From positions 22,595 through 86,594 of the IMG/VR virus record IMGVR_UViG_2778261139_000002: a stretch of DNA of 64,000 nt. One strand, given 5' to 3'. Positions within the stretch are counted from its first letter, which is position 1, and each line of letters opens with the position of its first letter. Made by a program: the position numbers and the translations under genes. The notes beneath the pieces were generated by a model that made no database searches, was not told where the DNA came from, and saw only the letters and a program-made list of their open reading frames with translations. Of this stretch, positions 214 through 30,571 are shown piece by piece. The DNA is from a virus (lineage: Duplodnaviria; Heunggongvirae; Uroviricota; Caudoviricetes).

Positions 214-1479
214 ATGAGCGGATTTGCACAGGGGTTACTTGCCGGATTCAGCACCGTTGACCAGGCAATGACCCGTCGTAAGGAGCTTGGTCTGCGTGAA
301 GCACAGCTTGCCCGGCAACAGAAAAATAACGAGCGCGATTTTGAATTTGCGCAGTCTCAGTTTGAGCACCGGAAAGAGAATGATCAGCGTACATATGATC
401 TTAATGTCAGGAATGCTGACCGTGAATATGCGCTGAAAGAGAGGGAACACAAAGCAGCGCAGAATTATCGAAATGCGTCACTGGGTATGGAGCAGCAGCG
501 ACTCCAGTTGCAGAAATACAACCAGCGACGGCTTGAGTATAACGATATGCTGGCGCGCGATCAGCCTGTGATGGCTGCGCTTGGAAAGGCTGTGGATGCT
601 GGTGATCGGGATGCGGCAATGCGTCTTTACGGGCAGTTGTCAGAGGGTAATCCGCTGAGGCTGATGGCGAATGATGGCTATGCAGCGAAAGCGGGGCAGG
701 CCGTGAACAACCTGCAGAAAATCTTTGATGATAAGCCGGACAGGGCGATTGCTTCGCTGAATACCCCGGAAAATCTCGATGTGCTTTCCGGCGTGTTTGC
801 CCCGGAACTACAACAGCGTATTGGCATGCCTGATTCAACCGGGGAAAAGACAATAAAAGAGGCCAGGATTGGCAGTATCGTACCGGCGCAGCAGGAAGGG
901 TACGTACTTATTGGTCTTGATCTCACATACAGCGATGGCTCCACCGCGCATAAACCTGTAACAGAATACGGCAGTGCACATCCTGATGATCAAACCGTGC
1001 TGGCGATACCCGTTGATAAGGCTGTCGCTCTTGTCAGGGATCGCAGTAAATTCGCGGAAATTTCGAAAAATTACGGTTATTTCATGCCGAAGCAGCAGGG
1101 ACTTTCTCTGAAAGAGCTTCAGAAGGGGGCCAGCAACGTAGCGGCGGAGGCGATCAAGAATGGCGGTAATGCTCAGGCTGCGGTGGATGAATATTATGCT
1201 GCGACTGGTTCACAACCGCATCAACAGAAAATTCAGCAACAAAAACTTCAGCAACAGGTTATCAACTGGGCGGGAGATGATCCTGATAAGCTGTCATTTG
1301 CCAGAAATGTAGCGGCCCGTCAGCCTGAAATGCTGGAACCTCAGAATCAGAAATTGCTGGAGAACGGGTATGCGAATTTTCTCCGTATTCAAAAGGCCAG
1401 GGGGGAACAGGCCAGAGATGAAAGTGCTTCATCTGCATCTCAGTTTATCCGTGGACTGAAACAGAATTACGCCCAGTAA
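214..1479 (+). CDS. Hypothetical coiled-coil-rich protein, 421 aa (possible virion/late protein)
   Basis: Long ORF with AAGGAG 6 nt upstream of ATG; Gln/Arg/Glu-rich predicted coiled-coil composition; no family recognised. Confidence 0.6.
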   Translation: MSGFAQGLLAGFSTVDQAMTRRKELGLREAQLARQQKNNERDFEFAQSQFEHRKENDQRTYDLNVRNADREYALKEREHKAAQNYRNASLGMEQQRLQLQKYNQRRLEYNDMLARDQPVMAALGKAVDAGDRDAAMRLYGQLSEGNPLRLMANDGYAAKAGQAVNNLQKIFDDKPDRAIASLNTPENLDVLSGVFAPELQQRIGMPDSTGEKTIKEARIGSIVPAQQEGYVLIGLDLTYSDGSTAHKPVTEYGSAHPDDQTVLAIPVDKAVALVRDRSKFAEISKNYGYFMPKQQGLSLKELQKGASNVAAEAIKNGGNAQAAVDEYYAATGSQPHQQKIQQQKLQQQVINWAGDDPDKLSFARNVAARQPEMLEPQNQKLLENGYANFLRIQKARGEQARDESASSASQFIRGLKQNYAQ

Positions 1480-1511
1480 TTCACGATATTCCATTAATAC
1501 CATTTCCTGAT

Positions 1512-1538
1512 GCCCGGCCATTGTGCCGGGTTTTTTTA
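1512..1538 (+). terminator. Rho-independent terminator/attenuator hairpin followed by T7 tract
   Basis: CCCGGC-cattgt-GCCGGG followed by TTTTTTT, directly upstream of the giant ORF RBS. Confidence 0.5.
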
Positions 1539-1548
1539 TGGAGTCTGT

Positions 1549-4500
1549 ATGGCCTATTCAGAGGAACAGCGTCCTGAGGCGCAACTCGGTAACCAGAATC
1601 GTAACAGCCTGAACATTCAGCAACCCGGCGAAACTGACAGCTATGAAGCATTTTTCTCTGATCCGAATCGCTGGAAGGATAACAGTACGTCGTTCAGCCT
1701 GGGCGATGTATTGCCAACAATGGGTAAAGGTTTCGCCCAGTCCGTCCGGGGAACAGGGGAAATGGCCCGTGGACTCGGTGATGCGATGATTCAGAGCCCG
1801 GTAAAAACAGGGGTGCGTATTTTAAATGAGTTCAGCCGTATGGGGCTGCCGGGTGTCGCAACTGTGCAGGATATTTTTGCCGGTGGCAGCAGGGGGGCTG
1901 ATGAGGTCATCGATACCCTGCCTGATGGCAAAAACGCGGTTACTGATACTGTCGGTAAAGGTCTGAAGGCAACCGGTAAGGCTGTCAGTGATGGTGCTAA
2001 AGCCTCGGATGAATGGCTGACCGATAATATGTCGCCGGGTGCTGTGCGTGCGCTGAATACGCCAATGAGTGAAGGCTATGATGATCCCGCAGTCTGGCTG
2101 ACGAAGGGGATGAATTTTGTCGGTGCCGTTGCGGCAGATGTGTTTGCTGGCGGTGTGGCTAAAAAGGTGGGTGATGTCACACTGCGAAAAATGCTGACCG
2201 CCGGGCTGGAGAAAAAATACATCGCGGCAGGGATGCAGCCGGAAAGAGCCACGGCACTGGCAGCAGACGCTGTCGATAAAAAAATGCCGGATTTATTCCG
2301 GGCGGGCCTGATCACCCATTCCACAGCCAGTGCACAGGGGCAGAGTGCAATGGCGGCAGCAGATGCTGTTCTTAATGCGGATTACTCTGAGCTGGCGCAG
2401 TCACCGAAATTTCAGCAGACGTTTTTGTCCATTGACGCCGACCCGCAGCACGCACAGCTTACTGATCGCCAGAAAATGGACCTGGCAAAAGAGCGTGTGG
2501 CTGATGAGGTGCGTGCGCAACTGGCAACCGATCCTCAGTTGCTGGCTGTGAATGCCATGGCGGCAAAACTGGGCGATGCTCAGTTGCTTAATCTGGCGAT
2601 GCGGGGCACGGCGAATACCGTTAAAAGCGGCATGATCAGAAACGCCACTGAACAGGGGGCGATTAATGCGGCGCAGGGCGGCTATTCACGCTATCAGGAA
2701 AACATGGCACTGCGTGATACCGCCGGAATGGATGTGTCGCCGTGGGAGGGCGTGGCTGACGCAACGATCGAAGGTGCAGCCCTTGGTGCTGCGATGGGGG
2801 CACCATTCGGTGCGGTTGCCGGATATCGTGGCAGACGTCAGGCGGCAGATGAAGCCGCCATGCGTGAGGCTGAAGTCGTACAGCAGGACGACGCAGCCCC
2901 GCAACCAGAATCTGTTGATCCGGTGGCGCAGCATCGTGAATCCATGCAGGGGATGAATCGCGAGCAGCTTCTGGAGCAGTATGCTGATGCGGATATGGCG
3001 ACAGAGGGTGACGCATCCGCAACTCATCGCCGGGAAGCCGCCAGCCAGCTGTTGAATGAACTGGACGAACAGGCGAAGCGACAGGCTGTGATGAATGAGC
3101 TGAAGGCGAAGCCGCGTTCTGAACTGCTTGAGGAATACCGCAGACTCAGCCAGAAAGAGGGGCGCACCGAGACTGAAGAACAACAGTTTCAGGCAATACG
3201 AGAAGTCATTCGCCCACAACAGGAAGTGACGCCGGAAGCACAGTCACAGTCTGAAAATGCGGAGGATGGTAACGGGAGCATTTACCCGACGGTGCGGTTC
3301 CGGGACCCGAATGAAGTCCGCATTGAAATTAACGGGAATGGTGCGTCCAGACCAGCGGAACGCATTGAAAAGGTGCGCCCGGACAACCGTTATTTCACGG
3401 ATGAGAAAAGCGCCATGGGGAGTGATGTTTTCCGTAATGCCGCCGCCACCGGCCTGAAACCGTCCGTAGTGAAGAAAGGCGAGAATCAGTATGCCGTTGA
3501 AATGGATAATCCTGCGTTCTCTGAAAATGTGGCAACGGAAACCATTAACACCCTGGCTGACGGAGAGCGTATTGCTGATGCTGACCCGATGGAGCAGCCC
3601 GCGTTCATGCGTGACCCGCGATTCCGTGGTTTCACGGGGGATGATACGGAGGTACAGGCCCGCCTTGCCCGTGGCAACGCGCCGACGGCGGAGGAGCTTG
3701 TACGTTCACAGATGGCTGAAGGTGATGCCGGTCCGACAGCACAGGAGTTAACTGAGCGTCCGCGTCTGCCCGCCCCCGGCGATATTCATCCCGGACAGGG
3801 ATATCCGTTACCGGGAGAGGTGGCGCGTACGCCGGATGAGAATCAGGCCGGACGTGGTGGTCGTTTTACCACAACCGGTGAGGTTAAGGGCCAGAGTTTC
3901 CAGAAAGGACGCGGCCCGGCACAGGAAAACGCCGCTGGTCGCCAGGGGGAAATACTGGAGGGCGAAACTGTTCGTCGTGGTCTGCCGTCACCGGATGAGC
4001 AGAGTGTTACCGCCCCGGTACGTGAAGGTCTACCGGCTCCTGACATTACACACAATGTCCGCATGCCTCAGCCTGAACAGCTTCCCCGAACTGTTCGCAA
4101 CTCATTACCTGAGCTGGCACAGCAGGCAGAAGTACGCCGACAGACAGGAGAAGTTCGCGACATCCCGCATGCTGAAACAACAGCACATGAGTCTGAAACA
4201 GTTGCTGCTACTGATGGTGAAGGTGCCGCACGCGGAGGTGTTGCCGGGGGCAAAAAAATTGAAGACTTTGGCGAGGAAATTAAAGGGGCAGCCAAACACC
4301 GTTATGCACAGCTTGCTGAAACACTGGGTAAAACGCTGGAAGACAGGGATTATGCCACGCAGCCGCTGAGCAAACTGTTCCCGAAACCGGACTACGCAAA
4401 ACTGGCGAACGAAGGTGCCGATGCTGACACTCTGGCAATGATAGCTCTGTATCGTAGCGATATTCCGGCGAAGACGAAACACAATACGGCAGGCTGGGGG

Positions 4501-21738: not shown

Positions 21739-22953
21739 ATGAAGATCGTAAAGGCTGAAGTTTTTGTTACCTGTCCGGGGCGTAATTTCGTCACATTAAA
21801 AATCACCACTGAGGACGGTATTACGGGCCTTGGGGATGCCACCCTCAATGGACGTGAGCTTTCCGTGGCCTCTTATTTGCAGGATCACCTTTGTCCGCAG
21901 CTTATTGGTCGCGATGCGCACCGTATCGAAGATATCTGGCAGTTTTTCTATAAAGGTGCTTACTGGCGTCGCGGTCCGGTTACGATGTCGGCCATTTCAG
22001 CGGTTGATATGGCGCTGTGGGATATTAAAGCCAAAGCTGCCAACATGCCGCTTTACCAGTTACTCGGCGGCGCGTCTCGTGAAGGGGTGATGGTTTATTG
22101 CCATACCACCGGTCACAGTATTGATGAAGCTCTGGATGATTATGCCCGTCATCAGGAGCTGGGATTCAAAGCCATCCGCGTGCAGTGCGGAATCCCTGGT
22201 ATGAAAACCACCTACGGCATGTCGAAAGGTAAAGGTCTGGCTTATGAACCCGCAACCAAAGGACAGTGGCCGGAAGAGCAGCTGTGGTCGACGGAGAAAT
22301 ACCTCGATTTCATGCCGAAATTGTTTGACGCGGTACGTAACAAGTTTGGTTTTAATGAACATTTGCTGCATGACATGCACCATCGCTTAACGCCTATTGA
22401 AGCGGCGCGCTTTGGTAAAAGCATTGAAGATTATCGCATGTTCTGGATGGAAGACCCGACGCCTGCAGAAAACCAGGAATGCTTCCGTCTCATTCGCCAA
22501 CATACCGTCACACCCATCGCAGTGGGTGAAGTCTTCAACAGCATCTGGGACTGCAAACAACTGATTGAAGAGCAACTCATCGATTATATCCGCACCACGC
22601 TGACCCATGCAGGCGGAATTACCGGTATGCGCCGGATTGCCGATTTTGCTTCGCTGTATCAGGTACGTACTGGCTCACACGGTCCTTCCGATTTGTCACC
22701 AGTCTGCATGGCTGCAGCGCTGCACTTTGATCTGTGGGTCCCCAATTTCGGTGTCCAGGAATACATGGGTTATTCCGAACAAATGCTCGAAGTCTTCCCG
22801 CACAACTGGACTTTCGATAACGGCTATATGCATCCGGGAGACAAACCGGGTCTTGGCATCGAATTCGATGAAAAGCTGGCGGCGAAATATCCCTATGAAC
22901 CTGCTTATCTACCAGTCGCACGTCTGGAAGATGGCACGCTGTGGAACTGGTAA
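21739..22953 (+). CDS. rspA: Starvation-sensing protein RspA (enolase-superfamily dehydratase)
   Basis: 404 aa from [27 protein letters not shown]; enolase-superfamily composition. Confidence 0.9.
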
Positions 22954-28375: not shown

Positions 28376-28567
28376 TTAAAGACCTGCCGGGATTTCGATA
28401 TTATCCTGGTGAATAACTTTATCGACCGGGTAACAGTTACCGGGAATTTTCTGTTCGGTTGCTGCAGTCATACACTCCTGCATTGTCCTGTGAACACTGA
28501 CTGCAATATCAACTGGCACTCCGGAAACAAGAAAAACTGTCAGAACAAGCGCAAATGCTGAATTCAT
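28376..28567 (-). CDS. ydfD: Small membrane/lysis protein YdfD
   Basis: 63 aa from MNSAFALVLTVFLVSGVPVD; hydrophobic N terminus; immediately downstream of dicB. Confidence 0.7.
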   Translation of the reverse strand: MNSAFALVLTVFLVSGVPVDIAVSVHRTMQECMTAATEQKIPGNCYPVDKVIHQDNIEIPAGL

Positions 28568-28752
28568 TGTGCACATCCTTTTGGCATCAGACGTAAACGA
28601 GCCAGCATTGAAACAATGCATATTTTATTTAATAGCTCCCGTTCTTGTTTTCTCTTGTTAATGGCATCTTCAGTAAATACAGGGTTACTGATAGTGACAC
28701 CAATTTCAAAACAACCTTCAGACGTATTAACGTTTGGTAATAACGTTTTCAT
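28564..28752 (-). CDS. dicB: Cell-division inhibitor DicB
   Basis: 62 aa MKTLLPNVNTSEGCFEIGVTISNPVFTEDAINKRKQERELLNKICIVSMLARLRLMPKGCAQ, recognised as DicB. Confidence 0.8.
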   Translation of the reverse strand: MKTLLPNVNTSEGCFEIGVTISNPVFTEDAINKRKQERELLNKICIVSMLARLRLMPKGCAQ

Positions 28753-28921
28753 TATCGCGTCCTCAACAATGAATTTTGTGATGCAGTGCCTGGTGCCTCC
28801 AGGTGACGTTAACCAGTTAACAATTAACGTCGGATACAGAGAATCCACCCATAACACTGTTTTTGGTTTTAACTGTTCCGCGTGCGCTTAGCCGTATTCA
28901 CCGCATCACAAAATTCACTTT

Positions 28922-28979
28922 AAAAAGGGCGGCAGAGCAGTCACGGAGTAAAACTGATACCGCCAAACGTCACCAGAAA
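28922..28979 (-). ncRNA. dicF: DicF small RNA (ftsZ-targeting sRNA processed from the dicB operon transcript)
   Basis: Minus-strand sequence TTTCTGGTGACGTTTGGCGGTATCAGTTTTACTCCGTGACTGCTCTGCCGCCCTTTTT matches recalled DicF with 3-prime hairpin and U tract. Confidence 0.75.
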
Positions 28980-29238
28980 ATTGATAACAGAGGGCGTTGC
29001 AGCGGGGTTGTCACTTAAGCGTATGGTCAACCTGACAACCCGGTGTCCTCAACGGGGAAGGAATAACCCCGCCATACTTACCGCCGCGCCATTTTGCGGG
29101 TTGCCACAACCGGAAGCGCACGGTCGAATTAAATTTAACGACACCGTACAGTGAGACGAACTTCGCCGTGCGCTTTCGTGTTGTGTGCCTGCTTTTAACC
29201 ACGTCAGGCGAGGTGGTATCCTTAAAATCACCACAGTT

Positions 29239-29814
29239 TTAAGGATTCATTAAGCAATGTCGCAACCACCAATAAATCCGCTTAAGAACATGAAAATTGA
29301 TTACTGGTATAAAGCTCTTACAGTTGTTGGCGCTGCGTTGTTTGTCTTTAATGGAACGTCTTTTTTTGACAGATATCCCGTTGTTCCATTGGGTTTTTTG
29401 TCCTCCGGCATCTTTTTTATTGGTTTGGGGGAGTGGATTAATCACCCTCTCATAGTGAGATTTATTGGTCCTGGAGTTTGGACTCGTGGATATAATCGTT
29501 CTTCGTGCGCACTCGGTATCATCTTCGACATACTTGGTTGTTTCCTGATTGTTACAGGAGTCGTCAAGTTCTTCTGATGTAAAACCGCAAATGGGGCACG
29601 TAACGGGAATTTTGAAAAGCGTTTCTCCGGGTTCCAGAACAAAATTTTCTGCGGTCTGATTTTGCTTCTCATATTTGTGCTCCGCGTCATTGTGAGAGCA
29701 CATTCTTATTCTGAGTGCCTGTTTAAACTCACTGAAGCTGAGAGCTTCTTCGCCTTCGGCAAGGCCTTCGAAGTATTCTTCGTAAGCCTTTTCCATGATT
29801 GTGTCGAAATCCAT
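29239..29814 (-). CDS. YdfB/YdfC-like early protein with Cys/His-rich region; only the N-terminal ~80 codons are convincing
   Basis: Start ATG 29814 coupled to ydfA stop (TGAtATG); beyond ~29577 the frame is antisense to the membrane ORF and K/N/Q-rich, so the true 3-prime end is uncertain. Confidence 0.4.
   Translation of the reverse strand: MDFDTIMEKAYEEYFEGLAEGEEALSFSEFKQALRIRMCSHNDAEHKYEKQNQTAENFVLEPGETLFKIPVTCPICGFTSEELDDSCNNQETTKYVEDDTECARRTIISTSPNSRTNKSHYERVINPLPQTNKKDAGGQKTQWNNGISVKKRRSIKDKQRSANNCKSFIPVINFHVLKRIYWWLRHCLMNP
29257..29577 (+). CDS. Predicted small membrane protein, 106 aa, three hydrophobic segments (moron candidate, antisense to the dicB operon)
   Basis: AAGGA 9 nt upstream of ATG; segments ALTVVGAALFVF, VVPLGFLSSGIFFIGLG, ALGIIFDILGCFLIVTGVV; overlaps the 3-prime part of a minus-strand ORF. 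Confidence 0.4.
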   Translation: MSQPPINPLKNMKIDYWYKALTVVGAALFVFNGTSFFDRYPVVPLGFLSSGIFFIGLGEWINHPLIVRFIGPGVWTRGYNRSSCALGIIFDILGCFLIVTGVVKFF

Positions 29815-29815
29815 A

Positions 29816-29971
29816 TCACTCACCTGAGTTTCTTTCCAGCCAGCGACGGGCACCATTTTCGGTTTTAAACGTTTTGCTTTTGGTATACGTCATCGCGGTG
29901 AACGTGCCGTCCTGGTTGGGGAACACGCCACATACCAGAGATTCGCTGTTGCCAAGATCGATAGTATCCAT
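29816..29971 (-). CDS. ydfA: Small protein YdfA
   Basis: 51 aa MDTIDLGNSESLVCGVFPNQDGTFTAMTYTKSKTFKTENGARRWLERNSGE; first gene after dicA on the same strand. Confidence 0.7.
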   Translation of the reverse strand: MDTIDLGNSESLVCGVFPNQDGTFTAMTYTKSKTFKTENGARRWLERNSGE

Positions 29972-30163
29972 GCTGACCTCATTTCCCCTTAACGCCGGGG
30001 TAGCGGAACTGTTTGCTGAGAACACCGTGCGGTGTCTTGATGGAGGTAATTTAGTTTTCTCATTATTTTTCGTCAAGGTTTTTTGATGAGAAAACTCAAG
30101 TGTTGGCGCAAGATAAAGCCAATACATTGAAATGTAAGGCTTTAAAATTTTGTGAAGGGATGA

Positions 30164-30571
30164 TTATTGATGCTTGTTGCGTTTGCGAGCCTCTAATAGC
30201 TCGGTGAACAGGCGATTAAAATTCTCAACGCGGGCGCGGAGTTCGCTGAGTTGTGCTTGTTGCTCTGATTTAGGAAGTGCGCGATACAAACGCAGCATCT
30301 CTAACTCATCTTCCGATAAGTCTAAGGCACTATCGAGTGAAACAGGGGGAGCTGGTGTTTTGTCCTCGTCGCCAAACAGTATCCAAGTTGGTGAACATTG
30401 CAATACCTCGGCGAGGCGATGCAAATTTTGCCCGCGCGGGGCTGTATGGTCACTTTCCCATAATGAAATTGATGAGCCAGATACGCCAGCAGCTTTGCTT
30501 AAACCGTTTTGACTTAAGCCTACCTGCTTACGTCTTTCTCTAATGCGTTGACCTAAAGTTTTCTCGTTCAT
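30164..30571 (-). CDS. dicA: HTH (XRE-family) repressor DicA-like, 135 aa
   Basis: HTH segment LSQNGLSKAAGVSGSSISLWE and C-terminal QCSPTWILFGDEDK...RARVENFNRLFTELLEARKR closely match recalled DicA; start at internal Met. Confidence 0.85.
   Translation of the reverse strand: MNEKTLGQRIRERRKQVGLSQNGLSKAAGVSGSSISLWESDHTAPRGQNLHRLAEVLQCSPTWILFGDEDKTPAPPVSLDSALDLSEDELEMLRLYRALPKSEQQAQLSELRARVENFNRLFTELLEARKRNKHQ

Follow-up and report, generated by a model that had tools for sequence, protein, structure and literature searches.

A conserved prophage membrane-protein gene and the opposite reading frame that selection probably keeps open across it

Introduction

Whether bacteria and phages have long antisense overlapping genes is a matter of dispute, and most of the candidates are young and backed by expression data only. 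A precedent is the arrangement of Pseudomonas phage Fc02, in which early gene 10 lies antisense to olg1, a gene expressed in the lysogen, and in which both Olg1 and Gp10 exclude superinfecting phages (PMC9936078). Among the prophages of Escherichia coli, Rac has the gene order racR-ydaG-ydaF-sieB(+)-kilR; in strain K-12 the dicBp/dicBF operon is under repression by DicA (PMC10448788). The present analysis concerns a cassette of ~520 nucleotides (nt) located in a 64,000-nt stretch of a virus of the Caudoviricetes (IMG/VR record IMGVR_UViG_2778261139_000002, positions 22,595 to 86,594; this whole stretch is called the window below). The plus strand of the cassette carries a gene of 106 codons for a membrane protein, and its minus strand carries an open reading frame (ORF) that runs antisense through the whole of this gene. 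It is very probable that the plus ORF is a genuine membrane-protein gene and that the minus frame is held open by selection in the phage-borne members of the family. The locus was not found described in literature searches. Relatives are cited below by our L and P numbers. The two ORFs and the parts of the minus ORF outside the overlap are the following (PGAP, Prokaryotic Genome Annotation Pipeline; aa, amino acids).

29257..29577, plus strand: plus gene, 106 aa, stop codon included (ORF list; homologues)
29239..29814, minus strand: minus ORF, 191 aa, or 205 aa from the upstream ATG at 29856 (ORF list; PGAP in some genomes)
29578..29703, minus strand: cassette-borne non-overlapping N-terminal peptide of the minus ORF (FKIPVTCPICGF), with an internal ATG at 29703-29701 and CPICG at 29598-29584, 21 nt past the plus stop
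29713..29814, minus strand: part of the minus ORF homologous to codons 1-34 of K-12 ydfB (alignment; PGAP pseudogene call)

Results and Discussion

The membrane-protein gene on the plus strand

The plus ORF is a true gene for a membrane protein. It is conserved and lies antisense within the early-left operon. Its coordinates are those of the earlier note on this DNA, which had described a 106-aa product with three hydrophobic segments. This description agrees both with the hydropathy profile (segments at residues ~17-37, 41-58 and 82-106) and with the AlphaFold2 model, in which helices 17-32, 42-62 and 85-105 are accompanied by a beta hairpin 65-79 (predicted local distance difference test, pLDDT, 84.5; predicted template modeling score 0.71). 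The predicted topology is N-in, C-out; helix 2 would have the GLGEWINHPL motif at its cytoplasmic end, and the product would be located in the inner membrane. The AAGGA Shine-Dalgarno sequence is present at 29241-29245; it precedes the plus ATG by 11 nt and not by 9 nt, as had been stated.

Homologues of the plus protein, 60 in number and 34-99% identical, occur in Yersinia, Herminiimonas, Reinekea, phage mEp390 and Burkholderia phage Bcep176, and a tblastn search of plus proteins against 50,697 phage records matched only HannyBb, mEp390 and Bcep176. The profile search yielded 451 cluster representatives, mostly of 100-115 aa, and the 29 plus-family loci come from several phyla. The family is defined by a length of ~100-115 aa, three helices and the invariant residues Y16 W17 Y18 K19 A20 and G58 N62 H63 P64, all of which are found in the window protein; DYWYKA and GLGEWINHPL are the invariant motifs of the alignment. 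Among the relatives the p-distance at plus codon positions 1/2/3 equals 0.36/0.23/0.61. The 33 single-nucleotide polymorphisms (SNPs) found within the overlap in 177 E. coli-type loci comprise 15 synonymous changes, 17 nonsynonymous changes and 1 stop when read in the plus frame, and 7, 24 and 2, respectively, when read in the minus frame. At the level of sequence comparison, the plus protein is seen to be under purifying selection.

Annotation of the locus is inconsistent by strand. PGAP reports a ydfB pseudogene or the 191-aa minus ORF at window-type loci and the plus gene in E. coli p10A, and the authors of HannyBb and mEp390 annotated the minus ORF, which corresponds to phrog_35040 (function unknown). 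The choice of the minus strand by phage annotators and PHROGs, together with the translational coupling of the minus ORF to ydfA, would favor the assignment in which the minus ORF alone is real and the plus ORF is its shadow. This assignment is hardly credible, however, as the plus family is present in many genomes with 3-17 antisense stops, substitutions peak at plus codon position 3, the three-helix hydrophobic pattern is conserved along with the motifs, and in p10A it is the plus gene that PGAP annotates.

No model of Pfam (E<=0.1), PHROGs or NCBIfam matched the plus protein, and the PADLOC defense models (E<=0.1) matched neither the plus product nor the minus product nor two relatives. Foldseek comparison of the plus model with PDB and BFVD gave nothing at E<=0.001; weak connexin-like matches were dismissed as not meaningful.

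Absence of stop codons from the opposite frame

The two frames are antisense codon for codon, with plus position 1 opposite minus position 3, and because of this register only the plus codons TTA, CTA and TCA can stop the minus frame. In the window sequence taken singly an open minus frame is not beyond chance: its probability is ~0.08 from local codon usage, and 17% of the 107-codon windows in the window's own genes have the same mirror frame open. Since the open frame is unremarkable in this one sequence, its significance comes from comparison with relatives only.

The plus family is divided into two branches. Subfamily A, to which the window gene belongs, is phage-borne and has the loop motif NGxGxLxxYP. 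Subfamily B, with the loop motif LTVxLxGVxN, is chromosomal; its members lie in islands on the same strand as their neighbors, and their mirror frame contains 3-17 stops. About 90 distinct genes were sampled out of ~450 family clusters. A lineage was taken as a subfamily-A cluster with a difference of 0.45 or more at plus position 3, a level at which synonymous sites are practically saturated and by which independence is approximated. Sixteen such clusters have 0 stops in the codon-aligned antisense frame, against 1.6-8 stops expected per lineage from local codon usage, and the other two antisense frames contain 1-16 stops. As this set was chosen for openness, the fairer count is 16 of ~17 lineages, and in the exception (L211) the antisense frame is still open over ~90 codons. 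The empirical chance of an open frame, estimated per lineage from neighboring genes, is 0.12-0.17, and the probability of 16 open lineages among ~17 is of the order of 1e-12.

The same is seen in the codon usage. Leucine is encoded by TTA or CTA in 0 of 224 cases in subfamily A versus 34% in subfamily B, and serine by TCA in 0 of 69 cases versus 21%. The codons ACA, GCA and GGA retain normal usage in both branches (27-29% in subfamily A).

The tail of the minus ORF had been considered in the earlier note as a passive mirror image of the membrane-protein gene, and this can be extended to a reading in which the plus gene alone is real and the minus ORF is a shadow frame left open by chance and codon bias. 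The single sequence would permit this (chance of an open frame 0.08-0.17), PGAP usually calls just a ydfB pseudogene, the tail is of low complexity and predicted to be disordered, and in high-GC relatives the open antisense frame is trivial. Nevertheless, this reading is very improbable. The 16 open lineages of subfamily A have 41-53% GC, and at 0.15 per lineage the probability stated above would apply; the codons avoided are TTA, CTA and TCA in particular, and the effect is confined to one frame; and the N-terminal peptides of the minus ORF are conserved with synonymous changes in the minus frame. The comparison indicates a frame that is actively maintained in 16 of ~17 subfamily-A lineages rather than passively mirrored.

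Both frames are thus open and conserved in diverged relatives beyond chance. Inside the overlap selection is clear on the plus amino acids, and for the minus frame only stop avoidance is seen there, with constraint in its flanking non-overlapping ends. The expression "overlapping gene pair" used in the earlier note is more literally true than its own reasoning implied, because the frame is held open and an N-terminal peptide is conserved.

Architecture of the minus ORF

Counted from the upstream ATG, the minus ORF extends over 29239-29856 (205 aa), as had been reported, and ends with TAA at 29241-29239. The likelier start is the ydfB ATG at 29814, which gives the 191 aa annotated by PGAP in some genomes. 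The ORF is translationally coupled to ydfA and is composed of the N terminus of YdfB, a CPxCG peptide and a hydrophilic tail antisense to the whole plus gene. Its sole match in library searches is phrog_35040.

In the relatives the start of the minus ORF always lies 100-290 nt past the plus stop, and the first part of its product is a short peptide that is conserved and located outside the overlap. Two types of this peptide are found. Type 1, ..(F/Y)xPxxxCPxCG.. (also IPxxCPxCG), occurs in the window, L125, L118-121, L122-124 and Roseateles L011, and its CxxCG lies at the same offset, 21 nt past the plus stop, in all these lineages. Type 2, ..FFExLxxxxPGSVxIDxxxxxVTLIGW, occurs in mEp390 and about ten other lineages. 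The aligned DNA of the N-terminal peptides varies at third positions of the minus frame, and the 24 SNPs found in the minus-only part in E. coli comprise 10 synonymous and 14 nonsynonymous changes.

The opposite end of the ORF is also regular: it is located 18-39 nt upstream of the plus ATG, in a basic-hydrophobic stretch, and within the last 7-12 codons, which are outside the plus coding sequence, 35-41% of the codon differences are synonymous in two lineage groups. The tail between these ends (~110 aa) has a mean Kyte-Doolittle value of -1.12. It is hydrophilic, with N, K, S and R as the commonest residues. No sign was found that plus codon choice shapes the charge of the minus tail, the leucine codon shares of subfamily A being those of subfamily B minus TTA and CTA.

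Operon setting and relation to K-12

Judged from the gene content, the stretch is a Qin/Rac-like lambdoid prophage of E. coli with the cassette inside its early-left dicBF operon, and many E. coli chromosomes match the window at 100% identity. The features of the operon outside the cassette are listed below.

30164..30571, minus strand: DicA-like helix-turn-helix repressor gene (PGAP annotation of an identical locus)
30048..30076, minus strand: dicBp-like sigma-70 promoter, TTGACG, 17-nt spacer, TAAATT (promoter scan)
29816..29971, minus strand: ydfA (DUF1391), directly upstream of the minus ORF (Pfam PF07151, 7.9e-27; PGAP)
28927..28978, minus strand: DicF small RNA, on the operon strand downstream of the cassette (Rfam RF00039, 76.7 bits, E 1.7e-16)
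28564..28752, minus strand: dicB (Pfam PF05358, 9.6e-40; PGAP)

The order along the minus strand is DicA-like repressor, dicBp-like promoter, ydfA, minus ORF, DicF, dicB, ydfD and exonuclease; this order marks the prophage as lambdoid and Qin/Rac-like and the operon as its early-left dicBF operon, and the flanking ydfA, DicF and dicB are as they had been described. The dicBp-like promoter, from which early-left transcription would proceed across the cassette, is identified by its position only, since one site was found against 1.6 expected. A sub-threshold Rfam match to STnc100 (28720-28929, minus strand; 34.6 bits, where the gathering score is 47; E 3.7e-5) covers the DicF-dicB spacer and the 5' end of dicB. 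A partial transposase pseudogene of the ISEsa1 family is annotated by PGAP in an identical E. coli locus (L001 7043-7501, corresponding to ~32842 of the window onward), and the prophage may be disrupted at this pseudogene; the immunity region lies a few kb to its left.

Homology to the Qin prophage of K-12 extends through ydfA and codons 1 to ~35 of ydfB and resumes near 29195-29240, from where it continues to dicF. Between these points the 3' end of ydfB and ydfC of K-12 are swapped for the ~520-nt cassette, and the ydfA-dicF interval amounts to 837 nt in the window versus 718 nt in K-12. The earlier note had supposed several hundred extra bp and an inserted gene. The interval is indeed longer, but the K-12 alignment indicates that the cassette is a mosaic module replacement and not an insertion. 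The operon position between ydfA and dicF and YdfB residues 1 to ~35 are common to both prophages. In K-12 YdfB ends at 42 aa and is followed by ydfC (72 aa), and both are displaced in the window. Here, the frame runs on into the cassette after residue ~35, so the minus ORF is not YdfB as defined by its 42 aa, and at window-type loci PGAP annotates a ydfB pseudogene lacking the C terminus. YdfC (72 aa, MQKREPVIIAPDYTDDELYEW...) was not found in the window. In the relatives P0067, P0069 and P0071 the cassette and ydfC occur together, and the minus frame continues into ydfC as a single ORF of 271 aa.

Of 5426 complete E. coli genomes, 806 (15%) carry the cassette, nearly always with at least 99% identity. 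Relatives with a disrupted frame are P0073, P0075, P0076, P0079, P0082, P0066, L116, L271 and the Shigella flexneri copy L031, in which the plus gene is broken. Frameshifts in the N-terminal part of the minus ORF pass into an alternative frame of 82 aa (29442-29690).

Genomic context of the relatives

The phage cassette is always antisense to the early operon and is found in one of two positions. The first is the left-side position next to the repressor (window, L118-126 and L211). The second is between cro and a cII/ymfL-like gene (mEp390, L212, L226, L224, L244, L250 and E. coli p10A); here the minus ORF spans the gap of ~500 nt and stops 5-40 nt before the next gene. In L129 (IMG/VR 3300004176_000001, ~1000-3330) the plus gene comes after a repressor-like helix-turn-helix gene and two lipoprotein-like ORFs, all in its own orientation, a layout that resembles, by analogy, a lysogeny operon of the cI-rexAB type. 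Prophages of the P0013 type carry a tRNA gene (Asn-GTT or Gly-CCC) on the operon strand ~125 nt upstream of the plus gene, just past the minus stop (L118 3794-3875, L119 3802-3875, L120 3482-3563, L121 3794-3875).

Neighbors of subfamily-B genes (L013, L025, L030 and others) encode DUF5677, DUF4926 and a HATPase with STAS-like DUF4325, which are typical of variable islands. As these are unrelated accessory genes, they offer no guilt-by-association lead. Three identical subfamily-B copies with an identical 5-kb match geometry are found in Arcobacter sp. NZ_CP182343.1 (L020, L021, L022), an indication that a mobile element or prophage is repeated there.

Element upstream of the plus gene

The region preceding the plus gene contains a further conserved feature.

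29181..29246, no strand assigned: almost invariant element (TTGTGTGCCTG..CCACnTCAGGCG..GGTGGTATCC) followed by the inverted repeat ATCCTTAAAA/TTTTAAGGAT (alignments)

The inverted repeat ATCCTTAAAA/TTTTAAGGAT contains both the plus Shine-Dalgarno sequence and the minus stop codon. About 50 nt are nearly invariant in the window, L125, L126, L118, L122 and L211, although the proteins are only 34-58% identical. The element is built of interleaved repeats GCCTG..CCAC..CAGGC..GTGG, and the candidate -10 boxes are TGgTATCCT at 29214-29222 or TAAAAT at 29223-29228. A hairpin over the plus Shine-Dalgarno sequence is predicted in 6 of 6 repressor-side lineages, with different inner stems and weak z-scores. 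The pairs of the consensus fold are invariant, and for this reason the fold has no real support from covariation. The Rfam search gave no match for the element (its matches in the window being DicF and the sub-threshold STnc100-like one), and the terminator scan found one weak terminator-like site (29754-29773), which is at chance level. K-12 partly keeps the element, with a 12-nt deletion. The element could be a promoter/operator or an RNA element.

Possible roles of the two products

The account that we slightly favor, with a confidence just short of even, is that of a nested antisense two-strand cassette of temperate phages in which the minus ORF encodes a real lytic-phase protein. A lytic-phase minus protein is slightly favored because of the conserved ends of the ORF, the consistent position of its stop and the Fc02 precedent (PMC9936078). 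An old, sequence-constrained accessory plus gene would have been overlaid by the minus ORF of the early operon, the N-terminal peptide of which would in the window have been joined in frame to YdfB residues 1 to ~35. Selection would purge from the plus strand those TTA, CTA and TCA codons that would stop the minus frame. The choice of the strand to be read would lie with the prophage repressor: with the early promoter shut in the lysogen, the plus gene alone would be expressible, and after derepression early transcription would meet the plus gene head-on and silence it, with the full-length minus polypeptide then made within the lytic program. The membrane protein would serve the lysogen, most likely in phage exclusion or defense, like sieB in the same slot of Rac. 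In its complete form, with the same ~320 bp giving two functional proteins (a membrane protein of lysogeny and an early protein of the lytic phase), the strand set by the repressor and the arrangement kept through at least 16 saturated phage lineages, the proposal is a tentative one.

The role in exclusion or defense may be suggested, with some reserve, by analogy: it is based on the position of the gene and on the general logic of genes that are expressible while early promoters are repressed. The comparison with the layout of a superinfection-exclusion or abortive-infection moron, drawn in the earlier note, is a fair analogy in this respect, as the gene occupies the exact slot of sieB in Rac, downstream of the DUF1391 gene and on the strand opposite to it.

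A number of observations weigh against the favored account. The sequence of the minus tail is unconstrained apart from its openness: in the mirror of GEWINHP all four proline codons occur, giving R, G or W in the minus frame, and substitutions are highest at minus codon position 1. The AlphaFold2 model of the minus product, built on a shallow alignment of 7 sequences, has pLDDT <50 for residues 42-176, which are predicted to be disordered. The synonymous excess at the C terminus is modest and is missing in two other lineage groups, including that of the window. Low-frequency variants within E. coli comprise two SNP alleles with stops in the minus frame and minus-frame frameshifts (P0073, P0075, P0076, P0079, P0082). 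On the side of the plus gene, the promoter and terminator scan gave no convincing sigma-70 promoter but only candidate -10 boxes, the protein has no homology or fold match to known exclusion or defense proteins in the libraries searched, and subfamily-B members are found in unrelated chromosomal contexts.

Some of these observations would be explained if what counts is that the minus ORF is translated, and not the product made, ribosomes being kept on the early transcript across the backwards-inserted membrane gene. Such bridging would avert Rho-dependent polarity, RNase attack on an untranslated stretch or pairing with the plus mRNA, and would keep the downstream early genes on (cII/O-like ones, or dicF, dicB and exonuclease). 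It accounts for a tail that is unconstrained and predicted to be disordered and in which stop codons alone are avoided, as well as for the filled gap of the cro-cII cassettes, and the occurrence of two unrelated N-terminal types on the same overlap, together with the ydfB fusion in the window, suggests that any translated start suffices. On the other hand, bridging alone leaves the peptide-level conservation of the N termini unexplained, and the excess of synonymous changes that two lineage groups show at the C-terminal end of the minus ORF also counts against it. Rac sieB stands antisense at the same operon position without a bridging ORF, and in the window ~490 nt of RNA after the minus stop are untranslated before dicB anyway. 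Moreover, a T-rich membrane gene gives an antisense strand rich in A and not in C, which would by inference be a poor site for Rho loading. We consider bridging, the main rival, possible but somewhat doubtful, and a functional minus protein remains the account slightly preferred.

Comparison with known systems

The support for the pair is comparative: a frame-specific ban on three codons extends over many diverged lineages and is missing in the non-phage branch. Selection for an open antisense frame is directly testable in such a pair, because changes silent in one frame stop the other. If two functional proteins are indeed encoded, the pair would rank among the fully nested antisense gene pairs with the deepest conservation known from bacteria or their viruses. 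A further outcome is a membrane-protein family that annotation has overlooked: it is carried by 15% of complete E. coli genomes, and its place in prophage immunity regions is the slot typical of exclusion genes. At this locus annotation pipelines and PHROGs choose different strands, and the plus gene is usually missed.

SieB of Rac shares with the plus gene its slot and orientation, downstream of a DUF1391 gene (ydaF/ydfA) and opposite to the strand of the repressor and the early-left operon, and both are small predicted prophage membrane proteins. However, SieB has 162 aa and the plus protein 106 aa, and, unlike in the window, no ORF on the operon strand spans Rac sieB. Membership of the plus protein in the SieB family was rejected (hhalign probability 0.2 against Rac SieB; no Pfam match at E<=0.1).

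In phage Fc02, olg1 and olg2 are ORFs of the lysogen located beside the repressor and overlapped antisense by the early lytic operon's second gene (PMC9936078), and the strand-by-state logic is the same as that proposed for the window cassette. In contrast, Fc02 is a Mu/B3-like transposable phage and not a lambdoid one, Olg1 is a soluble protein of 7.9 kDa, and deep conservation of the overlap is not reported there (PMC9936078). No homology to Fc02 was detected, with no direct test made and with HannyBb, mEp390 and Bcep176 as the only matches in the tblastn search of phage records.

The antisense genes of E. coli O157:H7 (pop/ompA, ano, asa, laoB) and of Pseudomonas are, like the minus and plus ORFs considered here, long opposite-strand ORFs dropped by standard annotation; the locus is not mentioned in a bioRxiv survey of antisense overlapping genes. 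The candidates from those genomes rest on expression data, and most are young and of narrow taxonomic range. The pair in the window differs from them in that the embedded gene is old and widespread, the enclosing ORF is the overprinted one, and the evidence is comparative, drawn from 16 lineages.

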